From: an uncultured delta proteobacterium | GTDB taxonomy: Bacteria; Desulfobacterota; Syntrophorhabdia; Syntrophorhabdales; WCHB1-27 | NCBI GenBank assembly: GCA_963810935.1 | Contig: CAWEPK010000011.1 | Span: 32,001-96,000, forward strand | Length of the DNA: 64,000 nt | Direction of reading: 5' to 3' | Shown: one piece after another, positions 48,887-53,683 of the stretch | Layout: each line of letters opens with the position of its first letter | Position numbering within the stretch: the first letter of the stretch is position 1 | The notes under the pieces: generated by a model | Database searches by the model: none | What the model saw: only the letters and a program-made list of their open reading frames with translations | Told to the model about the DNA's origin: nothing | Position numbers and translations under genes: made by a program

Positions 48887-49924
48887 TCAAAAGATGGATC
48901 CGGAAACGGCCCCGGCCCCGGCCGATATACCTGGGGCTACGTACGAGAATGAGTCGAGGATGTGCGGCGCGCCGCTGTCGAGGAGGGCCTTCCAGGCGAC
49001 GGTGACCGTCGGCCCCTCTACCGTCACGAGCACGTAGCCGTGGTAATCCGAGTTGCTGTATTCGCCGATTATCCTTGGCCCCTCCGGGTAGACGCCGGGC
49101 CAATGAGCCGGCCTCGGGCCTCCGGTGCCTGCGGTGACTTGCCGCATGGGATTGCCGGCAACATCTGGGATCATGGCCCGGTTGTAGGGGTGGTCATGGC
49201 CGCAGAGATAGACCCTCGCCCCCGCCCGGCCGATCAGGTCCCAGAAGGCGTCCCGGTCCTTCGGGTAGAAGGCAAGGCAGTCGAGGTGCCTCAATTGAAA
49301 AGCAGGCTCATGCCCGAAGACGAAAACGTGGGGCATCGTGTTGGATGCAAGCTGCCCTTCGAGCCATCTATAGTTCATCCTGTGGGGGCGCTCGAATTGG
49401 TCCAGGCCGACGACGAACGCGTTCTTGTGCGTAAAGCTGTAAGTGATCCCTTCTTCGCCCGGCGGGCCGTTTGCCGGTATATACGGCTCCGAAAAGACCT
49501 TTCTGAAGGCGTCACCGAGAAGGGCCAGGCTGCCGGGCGGCGGCTCGAACCGGGCCGGAAGGGGCGGCAGGGCGATGCGTTCGGGCCCGCTGTCGTGATT
49601 GCCCCTGACGGGAAAGACCTTGATCCCCGCCCCGTATACGGGCTCCATCGTCTTTTTCCAGTTCAGGTATTGGTCGACATAGGACGTTCCGCCATTCCTG
49701 AACCACCCGTTCACCAGGTCGCCCGCGGCGAGCACAAAGTCCGGCTTATCGCAGGCGATCGCGTGCGCGACCTTCCCAAGCACCGCATCGTCCACGCATG
49801 ACTTTCCGGGGGCTTCCCAGTTGTCGCCCTGCGTATCGCTTATTAGGGCAAACTTCCAGCCGGCCCCGTTCCGGGGCCCGCGCAGCACGTAGCCCTTTCC
49901 ATTCATAGGGCCGTCCGCCGTCAT
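48887..49924 (-). CDS. Calcineurin-like metallophosphoesterase
   Basis: SDTQ, GDLV, GNHD, GHEP, GHDH. Confidence 0.87.
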   Translation of the reverse strand: MTADGPMNGKGYVLRGPRNGAGWKFALISDTQGDNWEAPGKSCVDDAVLGKVAHAIACDKPDFVLAAGDLVNGWFRNGGTSYVDQYLNWKKTMEPVYGAGIKVFPVRGNHDSGPERIALPPLPARFEPPPGSLALLGDAFRKVFSEPYIPANGPPGEEGITYSFTHKNAFVVGLDQFERPHRMNYRWLEGQLASNTMPHVFVFGHEPAFQLRHLDCLAFYPKDRDAFWDLIGRAGARVYLCGHDHPYNRAMIPDVAGNPMRQVTAGTGGPRPAHWPGVYPEGPRIIGEYSNSDYHGYVLVTVEGPTVTVAWKALLDSGAPHILDSFSYVAPGISAGAGAVSGSIF

Positions 49925-49956
49925 GCCTTCATAACCTCTCTCTCCGAAGGTTGAGT

Positions 49957-50319
49957 TCACGCCGAGAGCCCGGCCTGCCCTAGCCTGCGCATCTCGTATG
50001 TGCCGGGCGGCATCAACCCGGGCTTTGCCCAAGCCACGAGGTGGAGCGAAACGCCTGCCCTCTTCGCCTGGAGATAATTTACCACGTCAGGCGAAAAATC
50101 GGCTTCATTATAATCAGCGAGCACCGTCTCCACCGGGTCCTGCGCCGGGCTTTTAAACGCCCATTCGTATCGTGAGATGTAATGCTTCGCCCGCTGCATC
50201 GCAAGCTCGGGAGATCTGTCCTCCACCCAGAAGTGCGCCAATCCTCCTTCGAGCCTTTCGGCATCGGGGTTTCCGGAGGTCGGCAAAGCGTTGAAAACAA
50301 GGTAGTAAATCCTTTTCAT
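49957..50319 (-). CDS. Hypothetical protein
   Basis: 120 aa with AAGGAG RBS; no family recognised. Confidence 0.6.
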   Translation of the reverse strand: MKRIYYLVFNALPTSGNPDAERLEGGLAHFWVEDRSPELAMQRAKHYISRYEWAFKSPAQDPVETVLADYNEADFSPDVVNYLQAKRAGVSLHLVAWAKPGLMPPGTYEMRRLGQAGLSA

Positions 50320-50454: not shown

Positions 50455-50478
50455 CGTTATATTATGTTGGATATAACG
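50455..50478. promoter_or_regulatory. ModE-type box 1
   Basis: CGTTATAT-N8-ATATAACG; overlaps the -10 of a leftward promoter (TTGACA 50487-82). Confidence 0.8.
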
Positions 50479-50719
50479 ACTTGTCAAGATAATTTTTACC
50501 GTCGGGAAGCGTCAAAAAAGAGGGATTTTACCTTACAGCTTATCTTCCCTGTGGATGACGGCCATCGTGCCCTGGTTATAGAGGTTCCGGGCGAAGCACT
50601 CTATGGAGATGTCGGCACCGGTTACCATGTGCATGAACATGCTGCTGTTCCCGACAGCGATGCTCCTTCCGGGGATCCCGCAAAACTCATCCTCATGTCC
50701 GCTGCGCCCGGGCGTTAAG

Positions 50720-50772
50720 CGTTATATTCGCAACTATATAACAGTATTCGTTATATACGACGCGCCATAACG
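50720..50772. promoter_or_regulatory. Tandem ModE-type boxes 2 and 3
   Basis: CGTTATAT-N8-ATATAACA (50720-43) and CGTTATAT-N8-CCATAACG (50749-72). Confidence 0.75.
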
Positions 50773-50815: not shown

Positions 50816-50848
50816 TTGACAATTCGTTATGCTACATCATATATAACG
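50816..50848 (+). promoter_or_regulatory. ModE-type box 4 inside a sigma70 promoter
   Basis: TTGACA 50816-21; CGTTATGC-N8-ATATAACG 50825-48. Confidence 0.75.
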
Positions 50849-50891: not shown

Positions 50892-52643
50892 ATGAAGAGA
50901 TCGTTTATTCTATGCTGCGCCGGGCTTGCCCTTGCCCTGGCAGTCTGTGCAGCACCGGCAGGGGCGCTTACCATAGGCGGACTCGTCAGGCAGCCGCTCA
51001 ACCTCGGCGCATCGGAGCTTGCGGCCCACTTCGAGAATACGACAGTCCGTGCGACCGAGGTCGGCAGCGACAGGCAGTTCCACGGGGCGTTCGTTTACCG
51101 GGGCGTTCCCCTCAAGACACTCTTGTCCCTCGCTTCCGTCCGCAAGGAAGACTCAAATTACCAGAAGCCGTTCGACCTCGCCGTGGTAGTTAAGAACAGA
51201 GAAGGCAAGACCGCCGTGCTGTCGGTGGGGGAGATCTTCTATCGGAACGGCGGTGAGATACTGGTCGCGTTCGCCGCCGAGCCGTTGATGCCCGGCCACA
51301 CGAATTGCGGCGCCTGCCACGGCCCGAGCGTCTACCAGCCGGCCCTCGACCAGTTGACGCGAAAAATAGCCTTTCCGAAGCTTGTCGTAACAGGCGACTT
51401 TTTCACCGACCGCAACCTTGAGGAGGTCATAAGCATCGATGTCATAGAGATGCCGGCGAGGGCAGACAAGAAGCAGATGAAAGGACTCCTCTCCTCGCCG
51501 AAATTCAGTGTCTCGGACGGCAGGGGAAAGGCCGTTGAGATCACCGACCTTGCCGGCTATCGCCGGGTCGAGATAGACCTGAAGTATATGAGCGAAGGGA
51601 ACGGATACCACGGCGTGAAGCGAGTGAGCGGGGTGCCGCTCAAAGACATCCTGGACAAAAACGGCATGGGCCGGGACGCCCACGCTGTGGTCCTCGCCTC
51701 GTCGGTCGATGACTACAGGATTCTCATCTCCGATGGCGAGCTTCGTCTAAACCCGGCCGGCGAGCGCATACTGGTAGCCGACAGTGTTGACGGGGTGCCC
51801 ATCAAGGAGGGGAAATTCACCCTGTTCTTTCCGGACGACATTGCCTACGACAGGACCGCCAAGGCCCTGAGCAAGATCGAGGTAGTGCGGCTGGAGCAGA
51901 AGGCGAGGCTCTTTGTAATCGGCGTCGGCTGCGCGGACACGAGTCTCGTCACCTTAAAGGCTGTCTCGTACATGGGCAGGTCGGATGTCTTTGTCGCATC
52001 CGACGATGTAAAGAGCCGGTTTTCGCGGTATATCGGCGACAAGCCGGTGCTCTTCGATCCGTTCAAGAGCATGGCCCACCTCATGAAAAAGGACAACGCG
52101 GGGCTTACGGAGGAGCAGGTTAAAGAGAAGGCCGAGGCGCAGCTCGTAAAGAACAACAGGTCGATCGGCGACGCCCTGAAGGCAGGCAAGAACGTCGCCA
52201 TCCTCGAATACGGCGACCCGACCGTCTATCCGCCCTGGCCGGGCTGGCTCGACCCCGAACTGAAAGACCGCGTGGAGGTAGTGCCGGGGTTGAGTGCTTT
52301 CAATGCGTCCAACGCGATGCTCGACGGCAGCCTCACGTGCAGGGGCGGCTCCATCGTGCTCACTACGCCGAGGGCCATCATCGAGAACGTCGAGCTTGCT
52401 AAGGCCGTCTCAAACTACGGCGATACCCTCGCAGTCTTCATGGGGGTCAGGGAGATTGCATCGCTCGTACCGGCGCTGCGCCGCCACTATCCGCCGGGTA
52501 CGCCAGTCTATATCGTTTACAAGGCGGGTTATTCGAATAGCGCGCACGTGGTAAAGACAACACTCGGCGAGGCAGTTGAGACTGCGGCTAAGGAGAAAGA
52601 AACTCACCTGGCGATGATCTACATAGTGCCGTGCCTCAAATAG
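50892..52643 (+). CDS. Exported fusion protein: two sulfite-oxidase/molybdopterin-oxidoreductase-like domains + CxxCH + tetrapyrrole methylase domain
   Basis: Sec signal (..AAPAGA); GVPLKTLL and GVPLKDIL repeats; CGACH (nt 51306-20); LFVIGVGCAD..VTLKA, GDPTVY, EVVPGLSAFNA. Confidence 0.75.
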   Translation: MKRSFILCCAGLALALAVCAAPAGALTIGGLVRQPLNLGASELAAHFENTTVRATEVGSDRQFHGAFVYRGVPLKTLLSLASVRKEDSNYQKPFDLAVVVKNREGKTAVLSVGEIFYRNGGEILVAFAAEPLMPGHTNCGACHGPSVYQPALDQLTRKIAFPKLVVTGDFFTDRNLEEVISIDVIEMPARADKKQMKGLLSSPKFSVSDGRGKAVEITDLAGYRRVEIDLKYMSEGNGYHGVKRVSGVPLKDILDKNGMGRDAHAVVLASSVDDYRILISDGELRLNPAGERILVADSVDGVPIKEGKFTLFFPDDIAYDRTAKALSKIEVVRLEQKARLFVIGVGCADTSLVTLKAVSYMGRSDVFVASDDVKSRFSRYIGDKPVLFDPFKSMAHLMKKDNAGLTEEQVKEKAEAQLVKNNRSIGDALKAGKNVAILEYGDPTVYPPWPGWLDPELKDRVEVVPGLSAFNASNAMLDGSLTCRGGSIVLTTPRAIIENVELAKAVSNYGDTLAVFMGVREIASLVPALRRHYPPGTPVYIVYKAGYSNSAHVVKTTLGEAVETAAKEKETHLAMIYIVPCLK

Positions 52644-52720: not shown

Positions 52721-53104
52721 TTACGACGGTATAACGACGAGGCCGTCAGTGTACATCTTCGGGGTGCTGATCGAGCAAACGGATATCGTGACCCGGACGG
52801 CCTCGCGCGAGCCGGCATCTACCCTCAGGCTCGCCCATACCTGATAGACTCCGTCCGTCGCGGGGACGATGCCGAAGCCTTGCTCGTTCCTCACCGTCGG
52901 CACTACTTCACCGTCCGCCCTCCTGAGGGACAGCTCGATCCCTCCCGCACCGTTCCGGCTCGTCCACCAGACCAGATATTCCTGGCCCTTCTTCAGGGAA
53001 ATCTCGCATGCGGGCGTCCCTGTCTTTCCCACCTCCTTTTCAACCTCCCGAAGAAGCCTTTGATGCATCAACGAATGAAACAACGAATCAGATAACCAGC
53101 CCAT
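52721..53104 (-). CDS. Hypothetical protein
   Basis: 127 aa with AAGGAG RBS; downstream of ModE box 5. Confidence 0.55.
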   Translation of the reverse strand: MGWLSDSLFHSLMHQRLLREVEKEVGKTGTPACEISLKKGQEYLVWWTSRNGAGGIELSLRRADGEVVPTVRNEQGFGIVPATDGVYQVWASLRVDAGSREAVRVTISVCSISTPKMYTDGLVVIPS

Positions 53105-53218: not shown

Positions 53219-53242
53219 CGTTATATACGTACCAATATAACG
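53219..53242. promoter_or_regulatory. ModE-type box 5
   Basis: Perfect CGTTATAT-N8-ATATAACG between the hypothetical gene and modE. Confidence 0.8.
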
Positions 53243-53356: not shown

Positions 53357-53683
53357 ATGCGGGTCGCTTGCAGGGTTTGGCTCGATAACGATGGTAAGGC
53401 GTTCGGGGAAGGTCCTTACAGGTTGCTGAAGGGAATAGAGAAAACAGGCTCCCTTCGCCAGACGGCCGCCGAACAGGGCATGTCCTACCGTAAGGCGTGG
53501 ATGGTCCTGAAGACCGTCGAGAAAAGGCTCGGCTTCCGCCTCCTCGATCGAAAGATAGGCGGGGCCTCCGGCGGGGGTTCTACCGTTACACCCTCGGGAA
53601 AGACCTTCATCTCAAAATACGAGCGGTTCAGGGCGGATGCCAACAAGTTGGTCGAGCAAGCCTACCGCAAGCACTTCAAATAG
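53357..53683 (+). CDS. modE: ModE-family regulator, winged-helix domain only (no TOBE domains)
   Basis: FGEGPYRLL..IEKTGSL..AA..GMSYRKAW, GGASGGGS.VT; 108 aa. Confidence 0.88.
   Translation: MRVACRVWLDNDGKAFGEGPYRLLKGIEKTGSLRQTAAEQGMSYRKAWMVLKTVEKRLGFRLLDRKIGGASGGGSTVTPSGKTFISKYERFRADANKLVEQAYRKHFK

Follow-up and report, generated by a model that had tools for sequence, protein, structure and literature searches.

Molybdenum (Mo) and tungsten (W) are known to enter bacteria as oxyanions through ABC transporters, and TonB-dependent uptake of siderophore-type metallophores releases the bound metal in the periplasm. Enzymes of the sulfite oxidase (SUOX) type, once loaded with molybdenum cofactor (Moco), leave the cytoplasm folded, through the twin-arginine (Tat) pathway. 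PruR, as described in the available text of two reports, is located in the periplasm, has a SUOX fold without the cysteine and binds pterins, which it holds between a tyrosine and a tryptophan (PMC11194511, PMC13259868). Features of these systems meet in one gene of an uncultured delta proteobacterium (GTDB order Syntrophorhabdales, WCHB1-27; assembly GCA_963810935.1), located in a 64,000-nucleotide stretch of contig CAWEPK010000011.1 (positions 32,001 to 96,000 of the forward strand) that is called the window here. This fusion gene (50892..52643 of the window, + strand) encodes 583 amino acids comprising a signal peptide, two Moco-fold (SUOX/PruR-like) domains, a CxxCH insert and a class III methyltransferase domain. 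Each part has a known fold, and no known system was found that combines them or that supplies S-adenosylmethionine (SAM) outside the cytoplasm; the function predicted here, possibly the release of Mo or W from imported ligands, is drawn from sequence and genomic context.

The open reading frame (ORF) is preceded by AAGGAG, 5 nt upstream of its ATG. The two sulfite-oxidase-like repeats recognised in the first-pass annotation of this DNA, which was made from the letters alone, are supported by Pfam PF00174, above cut-off in two stretches (E 3.9e-7), and by matches to the structures of SorA and PruR; their cores read GVPLKTLL and GVPLKDIL. Because BLASTP between repeats 1 and 2 was near noise (E 0.007 over 17 residues), the duplication in the N-terminal half (N-half) is drawn from Pfam and structure. 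Repeat 1 (residues 26-187; 50967..51452, +) has E56 close to where the Mo-ligand cysteine would stand and a conserved D173-R174 pair, and repeat 2 (residues 195-334; 51474..51893, +), which matches PruR structure 7rkb, has a conserved GxGxGYHG hairpin, D273-x-Y275 and D320-R321-x-x-K324. The CobM/CbiF-like methylase domain (51897..52640, +) was also correctly read: PF00590 covers residues 340-561 (E 9.6e-34), the loop expected to be GPGD is indeed GCAD, and the domain keeps GDPxxY and PGxS together with conserved Cys347, Cys483 and Cys581. No NCBIfam model matched the protein at cut-off, the best being CobM/CbiF (TIGR01465, 74.3 of 259.65 bits), and the clusters found for residues 25-335 through ESM Atlas features were all either of PF00174 type or unnamed.

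A search of 8000 candidates yielded 187 relatives, and family counts out of 120 refer below to the query and 119 relatives among the best 120 of those 187. Leaving aside the gene's own cluster, the listed relatives are nearly all full length, with 42-67% identity, and the few that are named among the matches listed are Syntrophorhabdus and other deltaproteobacteria; judging by these matches, the family occurs in anaerobic deltaproteobacteria. When 50% representatives were searched with a profile, 219 matched at E <= 1e-30, and a single-protein query against genome contigs yielded just one related locus. The fusion profile matched 50 of the 401 genomes in a survey of the phylum, which were sorted manually into 18 with whole fusions, three with split or cut copies, 13 with the N-half only and 16 with the methylase part only. 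Neighbourhoods were compared in 21 fetched loci (17 fusion and four N-half). One genome (G406; L162:2103-5680) has two whole fusion genes in tandem, with a receptor on one side and a permease on the other.

The AlphaFold model of the fusion protein has a predicted local distance difference test score (pLDDT) of 90.5, and the N-half alone 93. The closest structures to the N-half model include SorA (Z 16.3, root-mean-square deviation (rmsd) 2.0, 132 residues aligned), SoxC (Z 15.4), MsrP (YedY; Z 12.2) and, for repeat 2, PruR (7rkb, Z 13.9, rmsd 2.1, 119 aligned; 7kp2, Z 13.7). The fusion protein shares the Moco-domain fold and the association with heme c with SorAB, SoxCD and MsrP, but differs from them in lacking the Mo-ligand cysteine and a Tat signal, and in its duplicated domain and fused methylase. 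In a weak hidden Markov model (HMM) alignment, the Mo-ligand cysteine of SorA falls on N55/E56, consistent with the earlier remark that no cysteine stands at that position; the only cysteines of the mature N-half are 139 and 142. A regular expression for the Tat motif matched 0 of 120 family members. Like PruR, the N-half has a Sec-type export signal and a SUOX fold without the Mo-ligand cysteine, and the D-x-Y of repeat 2 resembles, by eye, N102 and Y104 of the PruR pterin clamp (N102/Y104/W160): D273 (119/120) and Y275 (120/120) fit, and K324 seems to be at the place of W160. Unlike PruR, which is one domain of ~170 amino acids, the fusion protein joins two repeats to a heme motif and a methylase, and has the PW motif of PruR in neither hairpin. 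Its neighbours are receptors and Mo/W transporters, whereas PruR has a downstream DcpA or kinase partner; no such partner was found on the same strand in the 21 loci, the kinase of L050 being on the opposite strand. By analogy with these proteins, the Moco folds of the N-half may bind a pterin or cofactor.

The model of residues 336-583 matches CbiF (2cbf; Z 21.2, rmsd 2.7, 223 aligned), and because borosin peptide methyltransferases match as well (Z 17.5), the fold does not fix the substrate. With CbiF and CobM the domain shares the class III fold and the SAM-site motifs, which align with those of CbiF as an invariant GDP (residues 441-443, 120/120), a conserved PGxS and an F-x-G strand; the TR-x-x-GR segment of CbiF is not kept. 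It differs from them in being predicted to be exported, whereas CbiF is cytoplasmic, in its GC[AG]D loop, in its three conserved cysteines (Cys347 of the loop in 118, Cys483 in 115 and Cys581 in 112 of 120), in its separate branch and in the location of its gene outside a cobalamin-type cluster. In a tree of 44 class III domains, 17 exported domains lie on one side of a branch and 27 cytoplasmic ones on the other (Shimodaira-Hasegawa-like approximate likelihood ratio test 87, unstarred), the tree having been made by a quick method with export labels assigned by hand and with no finished one-clade test. A mis-annotated CbiF was considered and rejected, the NCBIfam score being far below cut-off and the true CbiF of the genome (329.7 bits) being located on contig C9 among four clustered cytoplasmic tetrapyrrole methylases. 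SAM-dependent catalysis by the exported methylase domain is predicted.

The Sec-type signal peptide (residues 1-25; 50892..50966, +) proposed in the first-pass annotation consists of MKR, a hydrophobic core and AGA followed by L at residue 25/26, with cleavage probably after AGA. By a crude rule of charge and hydrophobicity, which is not SignalP, 109 of 120 family members carry an export signal, compared with 3 of 120 when the rule is applied at residue 336; so do 108 of 120 members of a separate family of standalone methylases, in which the signal sits directly ahead of the methylase domain. A periplasmic location is thus predicted for the fusion protein. The sequence LAVC at residues 16-19 was considered as a lipoprotein signal and rejected, since it is not a lipobox by the usual rule and is not conserved. 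The CGACH heme-c attachment motif (residues 139-143; 51306..51320, +), which lies in the first repeat as first reported, stands in a short loop insert; CxxCH is kept in 104 of 120 relatives and cleanly deleted in the other 16. A CcsA-like gene is present in 9 of the 21 loci, and a CcsA-like match is found on contig C1 of the organism's own genome. A conserved CxxCH, an exported protein and a maturation system occur together, as is usual for c-type heme, and attachment of heme at this motif is predicted. In several loci (among them L033:9734-11271 and L051:9716-11231) the fusion gene adjoins a compact pair of heme-attachment type, made up of a short CcsA-like gene and a ResB-like gene of ~255 amino acids (likeness by eye, no Pfam hit); such a pair is also found in L038, whose fusion protein has no CxxCH.

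Five ModE-type boxes are present in the window, compared with 0.01 expected. They fit the ModE consensus ATCGNTATATA-N6-TATATANCGAT in the available text of PMC545781, and the same motif precedes modD-modA (C15), mop (C7) and modE in the organism's own genome. With the modA, mop and modE boxes as its sole training set, a matrix gave the four boxes upstream of the fusion gene scores of 20.1-27.8, which put them among the 11 best sites of the genome; 16 sites score at least 17 in the real genome, and 1, 3 and 3 in three shuffled genomes. The first-pass annotation had placed three ModE boxes directly upstream: the boxes are real, but there are four (50455, 50720, 50749 and 50825), and only the last is adjacent to the gene. 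This box (50825..50848) overlaps the spacer and -10 element of a TTGACA(50816)-N18-TATATA site located 44 nt before the start, which is the geometry of a repressor site; the promoter scan listed no rightward promoter for the fusion gene, and the TTGACA/TATATA site was read by eye. Of the four, probably only 50825 serves the fusion gene. The others probably serve leftward genes: two are in tandem (50720-50743 and 50749-50772; motif and matrix) and likely belong to a divergent operon, of which a remnant stands opposite them, and the perfect box at 50455..50478 overlaps a leftward promoter-like site (motif and promoter scan). In a close relative (L001), a box equal to 50749 faces divergent exbB-exbD genes, and ModE-type boxes precede receptor operons with the N-half in G285, G415 and G422. 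The fifth box (53219..53242, by motif) is between modE and a gene for a protein of 127 amino acids. The local modE (53357..53683, +; TIGR00637 E 1.7e-18, below cut-off) encodes only a DNA-binding domain of 108 amino acids. Because this ModE has no molybdate-binding domain, we infer both the metal that is sensed (Mo or W) and the direction of control, in which ModE would repress the fusion gene when the metal is plentiful. The fusion gene thus resembles the ModE regulon (modABC; PMC545781) in having the same boxes at its promoter as are found at modD-modA, mop and modE, but it is not among the targets in the available text of that paper, and the local ModE differs in lacking molybdate-binding domains.

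The expectation of TonB receptors and ABC transporters nearby was borne out: the 21 loci include a TonB receptor in 16, ExbB in 11, an APC-type permease in 12 (all of them fusion loci) and ModA or TupA in 8. One TonB-receptor family is found in 32 of 34 genomes that have the N-half, versus 24 of 367 others, and the N-half travels with this family. In G285 (L049), a single gene joins the N-half to a TupA-like domain and lies between a receptor and a boxed modE-tupABC cluster; in L001, a neighbouring, more distant receptor is broken into two ORFs. The host is rich in Mo/W enzymes, as had been supposed, with 8 matches to aldehyde ferredoxin oxidoreductase (AFOR) and 16 to the xanthine oxidase family (MoCoBD_1). 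Siderophore-type TonB systems likewise combine a receptor and ExbBD-TonB with a processing protein in the periplasm, a metal transporter in the inner membrane and a regulator that senses the metal; this system differs in that Mo or W takes the place of Fe, and no counterpart was found in them for its SAM-fold enzyme and LAT-type permease.

To our knowledge, bacterial SAM chemistry is taken to be cytoplasmic, and SAM is not thought to be present outside the cytoplasm. The first-pass annotation accordingly found export to be at odds with methylase chemistry, an objection that loses some of its force because the neighbouring permease tracks exported methyltransferases of two unrelated folds. This APC-family permease is closest to structures of the LAT family, whose members are exchangers. 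A profile built from 11 neighbouring permeases found 64 places, of which 43 (at least 460 bits) are termed close copies; all 43 and the best 9 of the 21 distant ones were fetched. A close copy is present in 13 of the 18 whole-fusion genomes, with a fourteenth cut by a contig end, and in none of the 9 genomes that have the N-half but no exported methylase. An exported methyltransferase is located within 5 kb of 31 of the 43 close copies (26 class III and 5 class I) and of 0 of 9 distant copies, or 0 of 8 or 1 of 9 when corrected for L040, a truncated permease copy adjoining a fusion gene whose product was not classed as exported by the script. The class I partners are of at least three kinds (Methyltransf_31-type, Methyltransf_11-type and LCM). 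In the organism's own genome, the permease gene directly follows that of an exported class I methyltransferase, which is one of two among 30 PF13649 matches to have a convincing signal, a third having passed only from internal GTG starts. Because SAM use is the common feature of these unrelated partners, the permease may move SAM or S-adenosylhomocysteine (SAH), and its company with exported enzymes of two unrelated folds lends plausibility to SAM chemistry in the periplasm. Other exported class III members form receptor-methylase-DUF4198-permease cassettes without the N-half, and related exported methylases share cassettes with DUF4198, FmdE or nucleoside-hydrolase genes; the methylase and permease form a general unit, which is attached here to a Mo/W module. 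Exported proteins of the nucleoside-hydrolase family, one of them fused to FmdE, were noted in two receptor-methylase-permease cassettes (L096:5372-6487 and L097:8079-9569), where they could remove SAH. In the cassettes of three further loci (L075, L088 and L092), a double class III methylase is accompanied by DUF4198, the permease and yet another SAM-fold gene, which encodes a fused MFS/spermidine-synthase/TPR protein.

The reading that we tentatively favour, at somewhat less than an even chance, is that periplasmic SAM-dependent methylation frees Mo or W from an imported pterin or sulfur ligand while the permease swaps SAM for SAH. Under Mo/W shortage, the ModE-type box would be released and the fusion gene expressed; a TonB receptor would import a pterin- or sulfur-bound metal complex, and the tandem Moco folds would hold it. 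The permease would supply SAM, presumably by exchanging SAM outward for SAH inward, and the methylase would methylate a ligand atom of the complex, with S-methylation as the likely releasing step; the optional heme may oxidise the complex, and the freed oxyanion would pass to ModA/TupA transporters. In humans, breakdown of Moco to urothione needs an S-methyltransferase, according to the available text of PMC9607355. The periplasmic scavenger or processor of a metal cofactor that the first-pass annotation envisaged is partly supported, with the export signal, CxxCH, boxes, Mo/W-rich host and neighbourhood in its favour; the cofactor handled may be one of several, the tetrapyrrole option being weak, and induction by Mo limitation is predicted. 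Several observations weigh against the favoured reading. The partner receptor family has no match in the organism's own genome (93% complete), which is one of the two exceptions, so that the substrate would need a different route of entry, or else the cassette may be decaying; in addition, the receptor profile was built from neighbours (13 rows), without which the count is 19 of 21. The own genome's permease is on another contig (C5:328832-330193), beside a different methyltransferase, and 4 of the 18 fusion genomes have no permease. The 460-bit cut was chosen after the scores were seen, the kin are not independent, 12 of the 43 close copies have no exported methyltransferase by the script, and without the training rows 21 of 32 have one. 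Neither a box nor a Mo/W binding protein is found in 11 of the 21 loci, and the exported-methylase module is not specific to Mo or W. Neither the heme nor the methylase is essential, the former being absent where CxxCH is missing (16 of 120) and the N-half often occurring alone. Finally, the pocket of PruR is shorter than the Moco cleft and likely too short for Moco, according to the available text of PMC11194511.

The main rival, doubtful but quite possible, is a non-catalytic periplasmic binding protein, whose Moco folds would take up a pterin or cofactor and whose methylase fold would bind an adenosyl compound (SAM or SAH) or a ring ligand. The permease would then import and not export, and the cassette would salvage organic cofactors, still controlled by Mo/W, while no methyl group would be transferred outside the cytoplasm. 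PruR binds without reacting, in the available text of PMC13259868; methylase-fold genes sit between receptor and permease, as those of binding proteins do; the GPGD loop and the TR-x-x-GR segment are altered; and no periplasmic supply of SAM surfaced in the literature listings. What speaks for catalysis instead is that the SAM-site motifs are invariant, that this permease also accompanies three or more kinds of class I enzyme whose common feature is SAM use, and that the two cassettes L096 and L097 include exported nucleoside hydrolases as potential removers of SAH. An improbable explanation is salvage and remodelling of tetrapyrroles or corrinoids in the periplasm, the methylase fold acting on an imported porphyrinoid: CbiF, CbiL and CysG head the matches by fold and by sequence, the receptor scores, below cut-off, against models of heme and B12 receptors, and FecCD transporters and CcsA-like genes are nearby. 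It is countered by the CbiF score of 74 versus 260 bits and the presence of a true CbiF (330 bits) in the cytoplasmic methylase cluster elsewhere, by the ModE-type boxes in control, and by the action of the same fold on peptides (borosin, Z 17.5).

Very improbable, too, is a Mo/W-pterin redox enzyme whose ligand set would be unusual, with electrons carried by heme c as in SorAB and the methylase as an accessory; the top N-half matches are SorA (Z 16.3) and SoxC (Z 15.4), the heme motif is present, and conserved E56, H240, R174 and R321 could ligate metal or phosphate, but there is no cysteine at the ligand position, the Tat signal that such an enzyme would be expected to need is found in 0 of 120, and the genomic context is one of uptake genes. 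We give equally little credence to ordinary cytoplasmic methylation of an imported substrate, with the hydrophobic N-terminus serving as a membrane anchor or the methylase half being cut off or facing the cytoplasm. The crudeness of the signal rule, which is not SignalP, and a fusion gene split over two frames in G312 leave some room for this explanation; cleavage sites of A-x-A type seen by eye, a CxxCH of periplasmic type with CcsA-like neighbours, the lack of a second hydrophobic segment in the model and the standalone methylases with a signal directly ahead of the domain all oppose it.

Other features of the window and of the genome also carry ModE-type boxes. To the left of the fusion gene, a 47-codon 3' remnant (50536..50676, -; 87% identity to the whole copy in G299) of a gene for 379 amino acids, of no Pfam family, marks a deletion upstream of the fusion gene; this gene is whole in ModE-boxed radical-SAM/FecCD operons (G299; L037, also L039). 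Behind the perfect box at 50455 and its leftward promoter-like site are a gene for 120 amino acids and a metallophosphoesterase gene (48887-50319, -). To the right, the protein of 127 amino acids (52721..53104, -), of no Pfam family, has paralogues at C7:178365-178724 and C12:14044-14388 of the same genome (G000), making three copies; a box precedes each, divergent from modE, divergent from mop and near an AFOR gene, and the protein was found in 3 of 31 genomes searched. Boxes also precede three sets of two-partner secretion (TPS)/YDG exoprotein genes (G000 C7:181310, C12:350529, and C17:60536 and 60568; L104, L106 and L107). The set on C7 ends in a ShlB-type transporter and exbB-exbD-tonB and adjoins mop and modA, a hint at secreted Mo/W scavengers; several ORFs look frameshifted. 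The modA copy there (C7:178808-179506; L104:1309-2007) is apparently frameshifted near its 5' end, and modD-modA is intact on C15. A perfect box at C1:95170, with no obvious link to Mo, has a TetR/RND efflux operon on one side and a membrane protein and class I methyltransferase on the other.

Literature listings and the opening parts of abstracts contained no description of the fusion family, nor of a class III methyltransferase in the periplasm or a bacterial APC permease that exports SAM, and the available text of PMC2996986 has nothing on the fusion family. Source annotations label these genes 'precorrin-4 methylase', which may inflate counts of cobalamin pathways. A broader proposal, rather unlikely as it stands, is that anaerobes run periplasmic SAM methylation through a dedicated LAT-type SAM/SAH exchanger and salvage Mo or W from other cells' spent Moco, its tungsten counterpart (Wco) or thiometallates, by TonB import, holding in a pterin pocket, oxidation by heme c and release by S-methylation. 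The permease subfamily that tracks exported methyltransferases of two folds is a concrete candidate for a SAM exporter. If the proposal is true, Mo and W bound to organic molecules or to sulfur would have a route of their own, through a TonB receptor under ModE control and its pterin-pocket partner, and cofactors may pass from cell to cell, in sulfidic habitats whose syntrophs and sulfate reducers rely on many Mo/W enzymes.

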